Assembly: GCA_038108555.1 (NCBI GenBank)
Contig: JAYNIA010000064.1
Span: 1 to 12,579 of the forward strand
Direction: 5' to 3'
Origin: Nitrospinota bacterium
Lineage (GTDB): Bacteria; Nitrospinota; Nitrospinia; Nitrospinales; VA-1
Length of the DNA: 12,579 nt
A model generated the notes under the pieces. That model was not told the DNA's origin. It ran no database searches and was given only the letters and a program-made list of their open reading frames with translations. Of the stretch, positions 1,985 to 9,253 are shown piece after piece. The position numbers were made by a program, and so were the translations under genes. How positions within the stretch are numbered: position 1 is the stretch's first letter; each line of letters begins with the position of its first letter.

Positions 1985-2671
1985 ATGAATAAATACATCT
2001 CAGAATTTTTAGGAACATTTTTTCTTGTGTTTGTTGGAACTGGCGCGATCATTGTCAATGATATTACCGGGGGGCAGGTGACCCATGTAGGAGTTTCGCT
2101 AACCTTTGGTTTGGTGGTTACTGTAATGATTTATTCCATCGGAAATATTTCCGGGGCGCATATGAATCCGGCAGTGACTCTAGGGTTTTTGGTTTCAGGA
2201 CGTTTTGAAAGGCGAGACGTTGTTCCTTTTATCGCAAGCCAGCTATTGGGGGCTATTTTTGCCAGTTTGATTTTGCAGGTACTATTCTTAGAGCATCACA
2301 GCCTGGGTGCAACGGTTCCAAGTGTTTCCACATATCAGGCATTTTTGTTGGAAATCATCCTTTCCTTTTTATTGATGTTTGTCATTTTAAATGTTTCTAC
2401 GGGTGCCAAGGAGAAAGGGATCATGGCCGGGGTCGCCGTTGGGGCAACCATTGCACTGGAGGCTTTGTTTGCAGGACCGGTCACCGGGGCTTCCATGAAC
2501 CCGGCCCGTTCCCTGGGGCCTGCCTTGGTCAGCGGCCAATTACAGGTTATCTGGATATATTTGACAGCTCCTGTCTTAGGGGCCCTGGCCGCCTGTCCCC
2601 TCTGCCGGTTAATTCAAGGCAAAGATTGTTGTCCGGATATTGGGAGTCAGGCCTGGCCTGAAACCCATTAA
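1985..2671 (+). CDS. aqpN: MIP-family aquaporin, AqpN / bacterial NIP-like (probable metalloid/arsenite channel)
   Basis: Contains SGAHMNPAVT and GASMNPARSLGPA (two NPA boxes). The ar/R filter, placed by spacing against AqpZ, is F41-A160-A169-R175, the FAAR filter known for AqpN/ancestral NIPs. Confidence 0.9.
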   Translation: MNKYISEFLGTFFLVFVGTGAIIVNDITGGQVTHVGVSLTFGLVVTVMIYSIGNISGAHMNPAVTLGFLVSGRFERRDVVPFIASQLLGAIFASLILQVLFLEHHSLGATVPSVSTYQAFLLEIILSFLLMFVILNVSTGAKEKGIMAGVAVGATIALEALFAGPVTGASMNPARSLGPALVSGQLQVIWIYLTAPVLGALAACPLCRLIQGKDCCPDIGSQAWPETH

Positions 2672-2698
2672 TGCGGTGTTTATTTTTAGAAAAAATAA

Positions 2699-2720
2699 TT
2701 GCAAATTATTTGCAAATAAT
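2699..2720. promoter_or_regulatory. Palindromic operator, Fur-family (Zur-like) candidate
   Basis: Perfect 8-1-8 inverted repeat TTGCAAAT-T-ATTTGCAA (2699-2715), overlapped by a perfect 16-bp palindrome ATTATTTGCAAATAAT (2705-2720). It sits ~75-95 nt upstream of a metal-uptake module. Confidence 0.6.
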
Positions 2721-2793
2721 GTAAAAATTTGAATCTTTTTTAGTTCTATTTTATCCTAGAGTCTTGAAACACCTGTATTTCAAGGAATAACAA

Positions 2794-3102
2794 GTGGCAA
2801 ATTTGAATCATAAAAAAACCATTTTTATGCGTTCCAAAAGGGGAATCCTGGGGCTGGTGTTTTGTTTCAGCCTAATCACCCTCTTCGGAAGTCCTTTGCA
2901 TGACCATGATCTGGATTCGTCACATGTGGATCTGGATTGTATTTCTTGTCACTTGGTCCAGTCCAATATCGGCCTTGAGGGAGAGGAACCCAACTTTTCT
3001 CCTTTTGCCCAAATCACACAATGGGTTTCAGTGGCCGCAACTGCAACGTTTACCGCTGTGCATACTACGGCATCCAGCCGCGCTCCTCCAGCCTTTCTCT
3101 GA
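2794..3102 (+). CDS. DUF2946/CruR/CutF-like upstream regulatory protein with RAPP ribosome-arrest motif
   Basis: GTG start with AAGGA SD (2782-2786). It has a basic N-region plus hydrophobic segment (GILGLVFCFSLITLFG), H36-x-H38, H44, C49xxC52H53, and C-terminal SRAPPAFL*. It lies directly upstream of a TonB-dependent receptor. Confidence 0.8.
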   Translation: MANLNHKKTIFMRSKRGILGLVFCFSLITLFGSPLHDHDLDSSHVDLDCISCHLVQSNIGLEGEEPNFSPFAQITQWVSVAATATFTAVHTTASSRAPPAFL

Positions 3103-3304
3103 TCTGATTAATTTTAAATAATAAATATTCCTGACATGGTTGCAATTGGACATTTATTGTCTGGATTGAGAAGACTGTCCATGGTTCCCATTTAACGTGT
3201 GGAAACCTTTTTAAAGGCATTTTGGGGTTTTTGCATGAGTTTGGAAAATTCCAAATGAAAAGTAATGGTCTGTCTGTGTTGGGAAGCAGTCAATGGAGGA
3301 GGTT

Positions 3305-5359
3305 ATGTTGAGGTTTTTAGGTTTTTATATTTTTGTATATTTTGTTTTGGGAGGAATTCCAGTTTCCTCAGTATTTGCTATTGAGTATGAGAAGGAAAGT
3401 GAAGGACCCAAAGAGCATTACGCGATTCATTTGGATGAAGTTGTTGTGTCCACACCGATGCAGGAAACAATTGCTACTTCTGCAAAACCGGTGACTGTTT
3501 TACACGATGACAATTTACGGATGAAAACCGGCGCCACCCTGGGTGAAACCCTTCAAAATGAAATGGGGGTTCACGGGCAGTCCTATGGCCCGGGTGTCGG
3601 GCTTCCTGTGATCCGTGGTCAGGATGGCCCTCGAGTGCGTGTCCTTAATAACGGTCTGGGGGCCAACGATGCTTCCCAGAACAGCCCCGACCACGCTTCA
3701 ATCGCCGTTCCCATGACCGCAGAGCGGATCGAGATTCTGCGTGGACCTGCAACCTTGTTATACGGTAGTGGGGCTATTGGCGGTGTGGTCAATGTGATCG
3801 ATAACCGCATTCCGGAAAAAGTTCCTGACGAACTGGTTGGGGGATCGGTAGAGACAAAATTCAATTCCGCTACCACTGCACGTTCTACCGCGATGAAAAT
3901 AGAAGGTGGTAAAAATAAATTCGCCTACCATTTCGACGGATTTTATCTAAGGAAGGGTGATACCAAAATCAGTGGCGATGCCATCGATGCCACCCGTGCC
4001 CAGGTCAGTCAAGCCGGTACGGCTTTTCCTGAAAACTCGGATGGCTTTATTAACAATTCCGAAGCCGATAACTTAAGCGGAACGCTTGGTGCTTCTTATG
4101 TAGGTGATTTCGGATTTATCGGACTTTCAGGAAATATGATTGATATGGAATACGAAGTTCCATCCGGAGGTACCGCAGGGGGTGAACAGGCCTTTATCGA
4201 GATGCAGTCAAGAAAACTCGATTTAAAAGGAGAGTATAAAAATCCAAACGGATTCTTTGAAACGTTCCGCACTAAACTAAGTATTACCGATTATGATCAC
4301 AACGAAGGAACGGAGGCTATTTTTTCAAATGATACTTTTGAAGGCCGGGTGGAAGCTCCTCATAAACGCATCATGGGAATGAAAGGTGTAATGGGCTTTC
4401 AGGTAATAACCGGCCGGTTTTCCGCTTTGGGTCTTGAGGATGCCAGTTTTATTACTCCCATTACAAGGACCAACAGTTACGCAGTGTTTGCTCAGGAAGA
4501 GTTCAATGTGGGGGCAACGGTAGCTCAAATCGGGTTGCGTATAGAGCATACCGTTTTAAAATCGGAATTACGCGCGAACCCTGATCCTGAATTTACACCT
4601 ATCAGTGTGTCCGTTTCAGACCTGTGGAAAATCAATGATCATAGTTCCTTCAACGTAGCATTGACCCGGTCACAACGGGCTCCCATGGTTCAGGAACTGT
4701 TTTTTAACGGTGGACATGAAGCGACGCGTACTTTTCAGGAGGGCAATCCTTTCCTGGATATGGAAACTTCCTATAATATTGATCTGGGTTACAAGTATAA
4801 TTCCAAAAGAGTGGCTTTTGAATTAAACCTGTTCCATAACTGGGTCAATGACTATATCTTCACAGAAAGGACGGGCGGTACTTCAGCGGACGGCGACCCG
4901 ATAGTGGCTTTTCGGCAGGCCTCCGCCACTTTTATAGGTTACGAAGCTCAGCTGATCTACCATGTCTGGAAAAACGCACAGCAGGATGTCGATTTAACTG
5001 TGTTCAGTGACTACACCCGGGGTCAATTTGAAAATGAAGGGGATGTTCCACGTATTCCACCGCTTCGGGTGGGTTTCCAGGTGGATCATCGCTATGGTAA
5101 CTGGAGTTCCAATCTGCGCTTTACCCATGCCGCAACGCAGGAATATGCAGGCACTTTAGAGGCGAGTACACCCAGTTATAATTTGCTCAACATCAATACG
5201 CATTATCACGTTGACAAGTTTAAAAATACCGATTTGACTATTTATGCGAAAGGGAAAAATTTGCTGGATGAAAACATCCGAAATGCAACTTCGTTTCTGA
5301 GAAACTTTGCCCCGGAACCAGGAATAGGAGCTGAAATCGGAATCAGAATTGATTATTAA
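3305..5359 (+). CDS. TonB-dependent outer-membrane receptor, ZnuD-like metal transporter
   Basis: Signal peptide, TonB box LDEVVVS, ZnuD-family plug signature TLGETL...GPGVGLPVIRGQDGPRVRVL...DAS..SPDHA...RIEILRGPATLLYGSGAIGGVVNVID, ELFFNGGHEAT motif, and C-terminal aromatic residue (RIDY). Start moved from 3293 to the in-frame ATG at 3305 because GGAGGAGG (3295-3302) is then a normally placed SD. Confidence 0.92.
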   Translation: MLRFLGFYIFVYFVLGGIPVSSVFAIEYEKESEGPKEHYAIHLDEVVVSTPMQETIATSAKPVTVLHDDNLRMKTGATLGETLQNEMGVHGQSYGPGVGLPVIRGQDGPRVRVLNNGLGANDASQNSPDHASIAVPMTAERIEILRGPATLLYGSGAIGGVVNVIDNRIPEKVPDELVGGSVETKFNSATTARSTAMKIEGGKNKFAYHFDGFYLRKGDTKISGDAIDATRAQVSQAGTAFPENSDGFINNSEADNLSGTLGASYVGDFGFIGLSGNMIDMEYEVPSGGTAGGEQAFIEMQSRKLDLKGEYKNPNGFFETFRTKLSITDYDHNEGTEAIFSNDTFEGRVEAPHKRIMGMKGVMGFQVITGRFSALGLEDASFITPITRTNSYAVFAQEEFNVGATVAQIGLRIEHTVLKSELRANPDPEFTPISVSVSDLWKINDHSSFNVALTRSQRAPMVQELFFNGGHEATRTFQEGNPFLDMETSYNIDLGYKYNSKRVAFELNLFHNWVNDYIFTERTGGTSADGDPIVAFRQASATFIGYEAQLIYHVWKNAQQDVDLTVFSDYTRGQFENEGDVPRIPPLRVGFQVDHRYGNWSSNLRFTHAATQEYAGTLEASTPSYNLLNINTHYHVDKFKNTDLTIYAKGKNLLDENIRNATSFLRNFAPEPGIGAEIGIRIDY

Positions 5360-5411: not shown

Positions 5412-5443
5412 AAACCCTGTGGCAAAATTTGCCACATGGTTTT
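5412..5443 (+). terminator. Inverted repeat between the receptor gene and putA (intrinsic terminator or operator)
   Basis: TGTGGCAAA-A-TTTGCCACA (5418-5436) is a perfect 9-1-9 repeat, extended by AAACC/GGTTT and ending in TTTT (5440-5443). Confidence 0.5.
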
Positions 5444-5488
5444 AAATTATAAGGGTGATGAGAAATTGAGATTTTGGAGGGATTCAAA

Positions 5489-8400
5489 ATGGAAAACTTC
5501 TCAAATATCCTTACTTATGATGAAATAGAAGAAATAAAAGCCCTGGCCCCTAAATTGGCTGAAGAAATTCAGAAAAAGGCCAATAAAGCCATTCGAATTA
5601 ACGAAAGGTTACAGGCAAAAGAATTTTCGCGAATGGTTTCCGACCCCAAAAGTCGTGCGGTTTTCATGACTATCGTCGACCAGGTGTTCAGGCTCAGTAA
5701 AGATTCAGCTATCCTTAAAAAGTTTATTGACCTGTTAAATGAACATGGTGTTCCTTCCTTTTTCGGTCCTGTCGAAAAGTTTTCCCTTAAAGTTCTAAAG
5801 CTATTTGGACCCTTTATCCCCGGTTTTCTGGCCACTCCTGTGGTTTGGTCCATCCTGACGGTAATGCGTTTCAAAACCAGGAATGTCATTCTCCCCAGTG
5901 AGCAAAGACCTTTAAATGACTATTTTGAGAAATGTAAAAAGGAGAATCTCAAAATTAATATAAACCATTTAGGGGATATGGTTTTAGGGAAGAGGGAAGA
6001 GCAAAGGCATTTAGAAAATTATCTGAAGGAACTGGAAAACCCTGACGTCTCTTGTATATCTGTAAAAATTTCCACACTATTTTCGCAAGTCGATGTGGTT
6101 GCTTCAGAGCACACCATTACAAATGTAATGGAAAGACTTGAAACCCTTCTGATTGCAGCAAAAAAAGCAGAAAAAGAATTTGGTACTCCCAAGCTTATAT
6201 ATTTGGATATGGAGGAATACAAGGACCTTATCCTGACGGTTGAAATTTTCACGAAGTTTCTTGAAAATCCAAAGTTCGATTCTTTCACATTGGGGATTGC
6301 TCTCCAGGCCTACATTCCGGATTCATTCGTTTATCAACAGAAACTCACACGATTGGCAAAAGCCAGGTTGTCCAAAGGGGGTGCGCCCATCCGAATCAGA
6401 ATTGTTAAAGGGGCAAATATGGAAATGGAAAAATGTATTGCCTCTGTCAATGACTGGGAACAGGCCCCATACACCCAAAAAGTTGATACGGATGCCAATT
6501 TTAAAAGAATGACGGCTTATGCTTTCCAACCTGAAAATTTGAAAGCAGTAAAGATTGGAATCGGCAGTCACAATATTTTTGAGATTGCTTTTGCAAAAAT
6601 CCTTCAAACTAAAAGGGGCCTTGATCCTTCTTGCTTTGATTTTGAAATGCTTGAGGGAATAGCCAATCATACCCGACGGAGTGTTCAGGAGCTGATTGGC
6701 CCAGTATTGACCTACACCCCGGTTACCAGTGAAAGTGAGTTTCTCAATGCAATTGCTTACCTGGTTCGAAGGTTAATGGAAAACACAGATAAAGAAAACT
6801 TTCTTAGTAATTCATTTGATCTAGACGTTGGAACAAAAGAATGGAACGTAGAACTAGAAAAATTTCAGTTGGCTTTGAATAAAGTGTCAACTTTGGAGTC
6901 TCCTGCTCCTCGCCATAAACAGGACCGTAAGTTGGCGCATTTTTTGGAAGATGAAAAAACTCCTGAAGTTGAAATGTTTACTCCAAATAGCCCGACCAAT
7001 TTTGCGCTTCCGGAAAACCAGGAATGGTTGAAGAATGAAATTTTGAGAGATGATCTTATCCTAAATGATTTTCCAAAATTTGTTCCATTGAAAATTGGAG
7101 GAAAATATTTTTATGACAAAAGAAGCTTGCTGCCATCCAGAGATCTTTCAGGTGAAGGAAAAGTGGTCGCAAGGTTTCTGGGTGCCAATTCTGACGATAT
7201 AAACAATGCCATTGATTTTTCCAGCGATACTGAGGACTCTCGATGGGATAATGACGAAACCTATCGTCTAAATATTTTGGAGTCGGTAGCAACGACGATC
7301 GAAAAAAACCGGGGCTCATTAATTCTAAACGGAATGAAAAATGTGGCAAAAGGAATTACTGAAGTTGATGCTGAAGTATCCGAAGCTATCGATTTTGTAA
7401 GGTACTATTCCAGCGCATTTAAACATTTTCGAGACTCTTTCCCTGAAATTGACTTTAAGAAAAAAGGAACGGTGCTGGTCGTTTCTCCCTGGAATTTCCC
7501 CATTGCTATTCCAACGGGGGGTATTGCCGCAGCCCTGGTGATGGGGAATCGGGTGATTATTAAACCCTCGCCCTATTCATTGTGGGCCACCTGGAAAGTA
7601 GTAAAACTGTTCTGGAAGGCTGGGGTTCCTGAGCATGTGTTGCAATTTGTTCCTTGCGAAGATAAAGAAGCCCATCATCTGACTCGTCATCCAAAAATTA
7701 AGAAGGTGGTTTTTACTGGAAGTGGAAAGACCGCGGAAAAAATTATGAAAGGTCGGCCAAGCCTCGATTTTTCGGGGGAAACAAGTGGGAAAAACGTATT
7801 AATAGTCACCGATTCGGCAGATAAGGAATTGGCAATCAAACATCTTGTTGAATCAGCCTATGGATTTAATGGGCAAAAATGCTCCGCAGCGTCCCTGGCG
7901 ATACTTACCAAAGAAGTTTATGCAGACCCTAAATTTAAGCTTCAGCTAAAAGATGCAGTGGAAAGCTTGCCGGTGGGGGTTTTGGAATCGCAGCCTCAAA
8001 ACAAGATTACTCCCTTAATCACTTTTCCCAAAAAAGAATTGTTGAGAGCGTTGACCCAATTGGATGCAGGAGAAGAGTGGGTGGTTCAACCCAAAGAGTA
8101 TGAAACGGCGAATTTGTGGAGCCCGGGTTTGAGATGGGGAGTCCAACCGGGAAGTTTTATGCATTTAACCGAACTATTTGGCCCCGTTTTGGGAATAATG
8201 ATGGCAAATGATTTAAAACATGCCTGCGAATTGGCAAATCAAACAGAATATGGATTAACGGCGGGTTTACATAGTCTGGATGAAAAAGAAATTGATTATT
8301 TTACTGAAAATATGAAAGCCGGGAATTTATATATAAACAGCAAGACCACGGGGGCTATTGTAGGCAGGCAACCGTTTGGAGGAATCAAGAACTCCTGCCG

Positions 8401-9253
8401 TGGGGCAGGCGGAAAGGCGGGAGGGATAAATTATATTCTTCAGTTTGCAACTATCGAAGAGGTCGAAAGTAGAAAATTAGAAAAATTCAATTTTATGGAC
8501 TCATCCCTGGAATCTTTAATTTCTTTTTGGGAAGAAAATATCTGGTCGGGAAATTTCAGAGCCTTTGAAAATGAAGCCATAAGAGCCATTCAAGGAGTTC
8601 GAAAATGCCTGAATCAACAATCAGTCTATTTCTCGCGTGAACATTCCCTGTCAAAAGCACAGCAGGTGATTGGACAAACCAATACTTTTCGTTATCGCAA
8701 AATAGGAAAATATGCAATCAGGGTTTCCCCTGAGGACTTCCTTTCAGACATTCTTTTACGCCTAATGGCTGGAATTATTGCTGGAAACCAAATTGAAATA
8801 AGTATTCCCACGGAAATGAAGGGAAATGAAATAGTTTCATTTCTTGAGTCTCACTCCTTAAAAGAAATTCAAAATAAATTTTCCATGATTTTTGAAAGTG
8901 ATAAAGAGCTTTGCCAAAGAATTTTAGAAAAATCTATAGGCCGATTGGCCTATTCTTCTCCCGATTGTGTTCCTCTGGAAGTTTATACGGTGGCCAATGA
9001 GGTAAACCTTCCAATATTTAGAAACAAACCCGTAGTGGAAGGTAGATACCTGATGCTGGAGCAATATTACGAACAAACCATCTCGAATACCTATCATCGA
9101 TATGGAAATCCAGGATTAAAGCAGTTTGAGTTGCCTGATCCTAAAGCTATCCCCTTCCACAATATGGGAGTTGATTGTCGGACCGAACGTGAGGTGAAGC
9201 AGAACCTAAATCATTCAGTAGCTGTTTGTATGGAAGTTCCAATTGTTAGATAA
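5489..9253 (+). CDS. putA: Bifunctional proline dehydrogenase / L-glutamate-gamma-semialdehyde (P5C) dehydrogenase
   Basis: PRODH motifs LDMEEY, LQAY, RIVKGANMEME, GSHN, FEMLEG and AYLVRRLMEN. ALDH motifs SPWNFP, FTGS, ETSGKN, GQKCSA (catalytic Cys), ELFGPV and QPFGG. It has a C-terminal domain containing HRYGN and no N-terminal ribbon-helix-helix domain. The probable start is ATG 5489 after GGAGG (5476-5480), not TTG 5474. Confidence 0.95.
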   Translation: MENFSNILTYDEIEEIKALAPKLAEEIQKKANKAIRINERLQAKEFSRMVSDPKSRAVFMTIVDQVFRLSKDSAILKKFIDLLNEHGVPSFFGPVEKFSLKVLKLFGPFIPGFLATPVVWSILTVMRFKTRNVILPSEQRPLNDYFEKCKKENLKININHLGDMVLGKREEQRHLENYLKELENPDVSCISVKISTLFSQVDVVASEHTITNVMERLETLLIAAKKAEKEFGTPKLIYLDMEEYKDLILTVEIFTKFLENPKFDSFTLGIALQAYIPDSFVYQQKLTRLAKARLSKGGAPIRIRIVKGANMEMEKCIASVNDWEQAPYTQKVDTDANFKRMTAYAFQPENLKAVKIGIGSHNIFEIAFAKILQTKRGLDPSCFDFEMLEGIANHTRRSVQELIGPVLTYTPVTSESEFLNAIAYLVRRLMENTDKENFLSNSFDLDVGTKEWNVELEKFQLALNKVSTLESPAPRHKQDRKLAHFLEDEKTPEVEMFTPNSPTNFALPENQEWLKNEILRDDLILNDFPKFVPLKIGGKYFYDKRSLLPSRDLSGEGKVVARFLGANSDDINNAIDFSSDTEDSRWDNDETYRLNILESVATTIEKNRGSLILNGMKNVAKGITEVDAEVSEAIDFVRYYSSAFKHFRDSFPEIDFKKKGTVLVVSPWNFPIAIPTGGIAAALVMGNRVIIKPSPYSLWATWKVVKLFWKAGVPEHVLQFVPCEDKEAHHLTRHPKIKKVVFTGSGKTAEKIMKGRPSLDFSGETSGKNVLIVTDSADKELAIKHLVESAYGFNGQKCSAASLAILTKEVYADPKFKLQLKDAVESLPVGVLESQPQNKITPLITFPKKELLRALTQLDAGEEWVVQPKEYETANLWSPGLRWGVQPGSFMHLTELFGPVLGIMMANDLKHACELANQTEYGLTAGLHSLDEKEIDYFTENMKAGNLYINSKTTGAIVGRQPFGGIKNSCRGAGGKAGGINYILQFATIEEVESRKLEKFNFMDSSLESLISFWEENIWSGNFRAFENEAIRAIQGVRKCLNQQSVYFSREHSLSKAQQVIGQTNTFRYRKIGKYAIRVSPEDFLSDILLRLMAGIIAGNQIEISIPTEMKGNEIVSFLESHSLKEIQNKFSMIFESDKELCQRILEKSIGRLAYSSPDCVPLEVYTVANEVNLPIFRNKPVVEGRYLMLEQYYEQTISNTYHRYGNPGLKQFELPDPKAIPFHNMGVDCRTEREVKQNLNHSVAVCMEVPIVR

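Follow-up and report, generated by a model that had tools for sequence, protein, structure and literature searches.

A predicted metal-linked arrest leader upstream of a ZnuD-type receptor gene in Nitrospinota

In a 12,579-nucleotide contig from a Nitrospinota bacterium (JAYNIA010000064.1; hereafter the window), a gene for a ZnuD-type TonB-dependent receptor is preceded by a short open reading frame (ORF) that very probably encodes a metal-linked arrest leader. The metal sensed is probably zinc, judging from the zinc-gene context and from a ligand set that is His-rich and partly losing its Cys. Taken as a whole, the best explanation offered by sequence comparison is a cis-acting arrest leader of the CruR/CutF kind that would control the receptor by metal; we put the chances of this complete account at about even.

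Results

The leader ORF and its conservation

The palindromic operator, 102-aa ORF, spacer of about 200 nt and TonB-dependent receptor described in the initial annotation all lie where it had placed them. The ORF, a DUF2946/CruR-like predicted arrest peptide (2794..3102, forward strand), begins with GTG, with an alternative ATG at 2827. Judged by hydropathy it carries an export signal: residues 17–35 (2842..2898, forward strand) form a hydrophobic signal or anchor segment with a mean hydropathy of 2.0 over 19 residues. Next comes a predicted metal-binding patch, H36-x-H38, H44, C49-x-x-C52 and H53 (2899..2949, forward strand), recognised from orthologue conservation, in which residues 36–38 read HDH and residues 49–52 CISC. 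The conserved RAPP arrest motif occupies residues 96–99 (codons 3079..3090, forward strand) and is followed by three residues and TGA; the same motif arrests the ribosome in CruR (PMC12992588). From C52 to R96 the gap is 43 residues, in keeping with the 44 or so first estimated.

Codons 24–60 differ from those of nine relatives mostly at the third position (11–18 differences, compared with 0–4 at position 2), so the ORF is a protein-coding gene and, on this comparison, one under protein-level selection. Although 11 stop-to-stop frames in the source genome end in R[AGS]PP, only the window ORF has the leader anatomy, and a profile search of the same genome found no leader paralogue. The leader has no Pfam match of any kind; the search against DUF2946 (PF11162) that the initial annotation had proposed was likewise negative, for the leader and for the source genome. 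There is a weak, sub-threshold match to CzcI (E 0.094), which lacks the proline motif, and the predicted structural model is poorly folded (pTM 0.24).

Conservation was examined in 61 genomes, comprising 60 relatives and the source genome. The receptor is present in 19 of these at 22 loci, of which one belongs to a distant clade, three have no upstream DNA and 18, including the window, remain. The proposed synteny between leader and ZnuD homologues proved complete: a leader precedes all 18 orthologous receptors with upstream DNA, one of the leaders being cut by a contig end. Across the 17 complete leaders F25, H36, H38, C49, P98 and P99 are invariant, and R96 is kept in 16. The second cysteine of the CxxC, C52, is lost in two. 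Between HxH and PP there are no indels in any of the 17. The C-terminal half diverges freely in sequence, yet its length is constant and an arrest-type end motif is always present; the leader is always the first gene in its string.

The leader family extends well beyond these loci. By profile it occurs in 44 of the 61 genomes and in 64 of 120 sampled phylum-wide; the larger set includes 18 genomes from five distant families, which gave no match. Among 64 representatives drawn from a library of 1.8 billion proteins, 62 have CxxC and 57 match a CxxC–spacer–xxPP pattern. The spacing from CxxC to the end motif is almost fixed in these 57 (43 residues in 47 and 44 in 7, together 54/57), and 50 of them end in RAPP (27), RSPP (14) or RGPP (9), all arrest-capable or partly permissive; arrest-type endings are otherwise avoided by proteomes (PMC12992588). 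Paralogous leaders head three kinds of gene string: an outer-membrane protein followed by ZnuA-like and ABC-3 genes, DUF3299-zrgABC, or tonB-exbBD. No leader was present at the seven proteobacterial ZnuD-like plasmid loci examined (of 22 matches).

Some arrangements within the family are unusual. Paralogous leaders stand in tandem before a string encoding an outer-membrane protein of about 400 aa, a ZnuA-like protein and an ABC-3 permease at three loci (L112:4701-5405, L113:4206-4900 and L119:6430-7173), possibly as a double attenuator. At L054:7945-8787 (genome G016) two leaders lie back to back, one directed toward a ZnuD-like receptor and znuACB, the other toward tonB-exbBD, with no box between them. 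At G000:C53:2376-2587 in the source genome, znuACB follows a 231-aa gene that in relatives precedes a leader/outer-membrane-protein cassette; here both the cassette and any box are missing.

Relationship to DUF2946 and CruR

When 58 family representatives were scanned with PF11162, eight matched weakly and one passed the cut-off (P0063, 28.4 against 23.7). A language-model search with the window leader placed DUF2946 clusters at the top (0.94–0.95), with a DUF2607 cluster at 0.93. The leader also shares with DUF2946 and CruR a CxxC, a RAPP some 45 residues further on, an export signal, the first position in its unit and a long spacer. The copper-gene context is not shared: the leaders have genes of zinc uptake and of Zur regulons beside them. 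In CruR the ribosome stalls at RAPP, the two prolines occupying its P and A sites, and RAPP arrest depends on upstream context (PMC12992588). Its stalling keeps the importer on, copper binding to a CxxC 45 residues back releases the stall, and the distance that separates these motifs matters (PMC9426467). Geometry this similar suggests the same logic for the importer in the window.

The receptor is ZnuD-like

The longest receptor ORF starts at 3293; the start at 3305 is likelier because GGAGG lies 5 nt upstream and the orthologues begin there (3305..5359, forward strand). That a CruR/CutF-like leader stands before a ZnuD-family receptor, as first proposed, is borne out by a best family match to ZnuD of 370 bits, against 75 bits for a copper-receptor model, and by the closest solved structure, ZnuD of Neisseria meningitidis (PDB 4rdr, E 8.5e-63). 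The four ligands of the buried zinc site of that protein, D99, H100, E340 and H499 (PMC4557270), are all kept: receptor residues D133, H134, E338 and H475 (numbered from 3293) align to them with one uniform offset, and the four positions are invariant in 14 aligned receptors. However, the score falls below the NCBIfam NF038289 cut-off for ZnuD (370 against 950 bits), and the His-rich extracellular loop 3 of the neisserial protein is absent. By sequence, then, the receptor is ZnuD-like and not the neisserial equivalog.

A more distant ZnuD-like receptor (35–40%; L060:714-3442, genome G035) has a Fur-family gene next to it and two boxes of the form TGCAAC-n3-GTTGCA, and no leader; the locus is possibly foreign DNA or a binning error.

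A Zur-type box upstream of the leader

The predicted Zur-type operator is a perfect 8-1-8 palindrome, TTGCAAAT-T-ATTTGCAA (2699..2715, no strand assigned), upstream of the −35 hexamer of a sigma-70-type promoter predicted from sequence (TTGAAT-17-TATCCT, 2729..2757, forward strand). A weaker second box with three mismatches (2710..2726, no strand assigned) overlaps it and ends just before the −35; tandem boxes 11 nt apart are found in relatives too. By eye the TTGAAT hexamer occupies the same place in most orthologous loci, with only 6 of 17 matching the strict pattern, and a promoter scan gave no excess over shuffled sequence (8 against 5.6).

Perfect 8-1-8 palindromes are not rare (116 in the genome, 30 of them outside long ORFs). 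The window palindrome is nonetheless more than a chance occurrence because its exact pattern recurs: of seven sites in the 61 genomes, five lie within 2 kb upstream of the receptor family, whereas the reversed control has none. The site at 2699–2715 is the sole perfect one in the source genome, and it scores 30.4, against 19.7 for the next site in the genome, when a matrix derived from 25 sites in relatives is used. Allowing one mismatch gives 24 sites, 17 in seven of the eight genomes with a Fur-family paralogue (the copy in the eighth is truncated) and seven in 5 of the 53 without; these counts are a tally and not a test, since kin are not independent. In relatives the box precedes the Fur paralogue itself, COG0523 and WD40 genes, ZIP transporters and MerC-like genes; the same clusters hold FolE2, HisI and a dihydroorotase-like (PyrC-like) gene, and zinc-type neighbours further include ZnuABC and ZrgA/DUF3299. 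Such genes are markers of Zur regulons (PMC2770081, PMC6103462). On this comparative evidence the palindrome is a regulon box that behaves like a Zur box in relatives, which agrees with the Fur/Zur-like box of the initial annotation. We also considered an iron-Fur site; this is less likely, in that the box tracks a separate Fur paralogue and genomes with only an ordinary Fur are mostly without it.

Directly under the box in several relatives are two genes without a Pfam match, encoding 223 aa (L045:5219-5890) and 85 aa (4962-5219); they are candidate new zinc-starvation genes.

The spacer and a candidate output

The intergenic spacer (3103..3304, forward strand) contains the receptor ribosome-binding site (3294–3301) and measures 202 nt to the ATG at 3305 or 190 nt to that at 3293; in relatives it varies from 99 to 218 nt. 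The codons from Ala-Pro-Pro to the stop (3083..3102, forward strand) form a candidate anti-Shine-Dalgarno (anti-SD) arm that would lie under the footprint of a stalled ribosome. Bases 3083–3090 pair with 3294–3301 in both the minimum-free-energy and the centroid structures. In relatives, where the helix was read off the consensus, the last codons of the leader and the TGA pair with bases ending in the Shine-Dalgarno (SD) sequence; 87% are paired, compared with 37–60% when the alignment is slid. The stop is TGA in 16 of 17 leaders. In the seventeenth, at L012:3541-3678 (genome G043), the frame shifts by one base beyond the PP codons and the tail grows to seven residues, yet the RNA arm with its SD-pairing bases is kept. 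When stalling was simulated in a short sequence context, the SD region opened at 16 of 17 loci.

All 17 loci have a C-rich leader end, measured over the last 120 nt (C/G 41/23 in the window), which keeps Rho termination in consideration as an output. Since an Rfam scan of 2500–3500 returned no match to E 5, no known riboswitch is present in that interval.

A link to ZrgD

In Vibrionaceae, ZrgD (DUF2607/PF10795) is encoded first in the zrg operon for zinc uptake, which Zur represses; the available text of PMC9817125 assigns ZrgD no function. PF10795 matched neither the window leader nor its genome, and five of 58 family representatives matched it, all below the cut-off. Profile comparison of the window family with ZrgD gave a moderate match (probability 75.9, E 2.3e-5), and we regard ZrgD as a putative remote homologue of the leader family.

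We collected 80 metagenome loci of the zrg ATPase. All seven of Vibrionaceae type, one of which is the Vibrio cholerae gene, show the order Zur box, DUF2607 ORF with an RSPP, RAPP or RGPP end, zrgA. Fourteen loci of Aeromonas type carry a CxxC + RAPP leader, with no Zur-type box matched in any of them. The other 59 matched neither leader type, five of these having little upstream DNA. An unannotated CxxC + RAPP leader also stands before zrgA in Aeromonas species (L131:1307-1621). Loci of Pseudomonas type have the box and lack the leader, and no zrgA locus was found in viral contigs.

Neighbouring genes in the window

A terminator-like hairpin follows the receptor (5418..5436, forward strand; a consensus match only), and directly beyond lies a bifunctional proline dehydrogenase/aldehyde dehydrogenase gene (PutA-like, 5474-9253) that is not conserved beside the receptor in the relatives examined. 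Upstream of the leader, 1985-2671 encodes an aquaporin (MIP) with a Cys-rich tail (CxxC...CC), possibly metalloid-related, which is near the receptor in two other genomes (L055, L057). The gene at 863-1702 encodes an exported protein of 279 aa that weakly matches the HAEPLYID family (E 0.003); it is upstream of the leader in genome G004 too.

Discussion

How the leader might work

The following scheme is what the comparison with CruR suggests. The ribosome would stall with Pro98 and Pro99 in the P and A sites, leaving the His/Cys patch, 43–60 residues back, just outside the tunnel at the translocon. The stalled ribosome would cover the last codons and stop of the leader, freeing the receptor ribosome-binding site for translation, and might in addition protect the C-rich end of the leader against Rho. 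A metal bound by the patch would release the stall, as proposed for CruR, whereupon the helix would form and the receptor be switched off. Where a Zur-like repressor exists, the palindrome would add transcriptional repression, a layer optional in the lineage and possibly vestigial in the source genome. The net effect would be a receptor that is on when the metal, probably zinc, is scarce and off when it is plentiful. The initial annotation had suggested zinc, nickel or cobalt; the neighbourhood points to zinc and not to the other two.

A number of observations weigh against this scheme. Stalling, its direction and the metal are predictions; the window leader fails the DUF2946 profile; and both characterised relatives, CruR and CutF, sense copper, with opposite signs, the CxxC being a copper-type motif. 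As to the output, only one of ten helix pairs shows a two-sided change, and RNAalifold chose the Pro codons as the SD partner instead, at only −0.45 kcal/mol; composition alone lets Pro codons pair with any SD, and 8% of ordinary SD regions pair with the window arm as well as its own does. Folding of 3070–3320 is no more stable than that of shuffled sequences (z −0.59). In a longer context the footprint block raises unpairing of the SD core from 0.09 to 0.15, whereas a control block raises it to 0.13. Because the short-context effect faded in this way, we grade the modelled switch, in which stalling would open the SD by disrupting leader-end pairing, as weak.

The box lies within 700 nt at only 4 of 17 leader–receptor loci. 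The Fur paralogue of relatives was not found in the source assembly (four queries; 91.85% complete), whose two Fur-family genes score best as Fur. In the source genome znuABC and cobW have no box. The paralogue reaches no Zur model cut-off, and an exact box stands before a siderophore-type TonB receptor (L048:3428-6020, genome G055): either this is a candidate zincophore receptor or the regulator is not zinc-only. The window operator is either served by a repressor gene that was not assembled or a recent relic. The 'two-tier' module first proposed thus keeps a real box and loses its generality: the leader is the constant tier, and the predicted Zur-type operator the optional one.

Other explanations

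The same arrest leader might sense copper (or nickel, cobalt or cadmium), shutting the zinc importer against mis-metallation while zinc is read by Zur alone. CxxC is present in 62 of the 64 family members, CruR and CutF are copper sensors (zinc affected mRNA of bfrG, the CruR target, only moderately; PMC9426467), and two tiers tuned to different metals would account for the retention of both. We nevertheless think a copper sensor unlikely: the ZnuD model scores the receptor far higher than the copper-receptor model does, the neighbours scanned beside leaders include no recognised copper gene, C52 is lost in two orthologues and HxH in none, ZrgD has a single Cys, and ten other receptor-bearing genomes have no repressor match, so that no candidate sensor but the leader was found at the locus there. 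If a zinc-linked leader acted through Rho-dependent termination, the way CruR does, the SD pairing would be incidental. The C-rich leader end, a spacer comparable in length to the 162 nt of CruR, and the weak folding results all fit such an output, which we hold to be distinctly unlikely in view of three points: the window spacer is itself G-rich (C/G 24/49), Pro, Ser, Thr and Ala codons alone give C-richness, and the stop-proximal and pre-SD bases are conserved together despite very different spacer lengths.

There is a small chance that the ORF simply encodes a small zinc-binding protein or chaperone of the periplasm and regulates nothing in cis. Its export signal, His/Cys patch and weak CzcI match would be expected of one; a freely diverging C-terminal half that keeps both its length and its arrest-type end would not, nor would the poorly folded model and the unvarying first position. 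Slighter still is the prospect that the leader gauges the capacity for Sec export or membrane insertion, as do SecM and ApdP, with its His and Cys incidental: RAPP together with an export signal is how Sec monitors are built and all targets are exported, but the His and Cys are invariant at a fixed distance from the motif and the neighbours are metal-uptake and not sec genes.

Significance

If the predicted leader reads zinc, it would close a gap: the CruR paper notes that riboswitches are not known for either zinc or copper and that peptide leaders, demonstrated for copper only, may take their place (PMC9426467). ZrgD/DUF2607, the unexplained first gene of a much-studied Zur operon, would gain a function, and zinc-uptake control would be explained in many marine nitrite-oxidiser relatives where no Zur was found. 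A broader proposal, tentative and on balance doubtful, is that zinc has a post-transcriptional sensor of its own that is widespread: RAPP leaders of a His-tuned branch, including the Nitrospinota family and ZrgD/DUF2607 of Vibrionaceae, would read periplasmic zinc during translation, and in most Nitrospinales would have taken the place of Zur in switching zinc import, sometimes as tandem double leaders.

The significance is tempered by the design being known already, and by the gene pairing: the initial annotation knew of no characterised example, which holds for experiments, yet published survey source data, in the part available, already list CruR/CutF-like leaders before zinc genes. The terms 'Nitrospin' and 'ZnuD' do not occur in the searched part of those data. 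The CutF-like survey describes TonB-like genes nearby and some members without copper specificity, naming nickel and cobalt but not zinc (bioRxiv 10.1101/2022.11.11.516240; 10.1101/2025.02.05.636593). Apart from the remark on zinc and bfrG, zinc is absent from the main texts of the CruR paper (PMC9426467), two CutF preprints and the EMBO J survey, and a literature search covering few subscription papers found none that tests a zinc-responsive arrest leader or gives ZrgD such a role. New here are the Zur-type box of Nitrospinales and the patchy occurrence of its regulator, the spread of the leader family across several operons for zinc uptake, and the ZrgD link.

Comparison with known systems

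The predicted Zur box of Desulfovibrio, ATGCAAC-n3-GTTGCAT (PMC545781), is likewise a 17-bp palindrome with a TGCAA-n5-TTGCA core before zinc-uptake genes. The window box differs in its inner bases (AT-n-AT) and outer base (T/A), and both are predictions. ZrgD and the window leader each follow a Zur-type box as an exported, His-bearing ORF of about 100 aa with a RAPP-like end and zinc-uptake genes after it, and Nitrospinota leader paralogues also head zrg operons. ZrgD has one Cys and His-rich ligands where the window leader has CxxC, and its target is an ABC system with a classic gammaproteobacterial Zur box where that of the window is a TonB receptor.

CutF of Rhodobacter capsulatus (PMC9973294; 10.1101/2025.02.05.636593) is also an exported His/Cys leader with a proline end, and its output, the unmasking of a ribosome-binding site, resembles the candidate output here. 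CutF, however, stalls upon copper binding and switches on a detoxifying oxidase; since the window target is an importer, the opposite sign would be expected. The sensing during export suggested in the initial annotation is conjectural: the signal peptide is needed in CutF and dispensable in CruR. CruR (Bp2923) of Bordetella pertussis, the DUF2946/PF11162 leader of bfrG (PMC9426467; arrest, PMC12992588), has in common with the window leader its place as first gene of the unit, an export signal, three residues after RAPP, a long spacer and a TonB-dependent importer downstream; the CxxC-to-RAPP distance is 45 residues in CruR and 43 here. Unlike CruR, the window leader has a ZnuD-family receptor, a zinc-regulon context and an invariant HxH before its CxxC, lies below Pfam profile detection, and belongs to a family that has a Zur-type box in some genomes. 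Where CruR has a demonstrated Rho terminator, the window has a candidate anti-SD helix.

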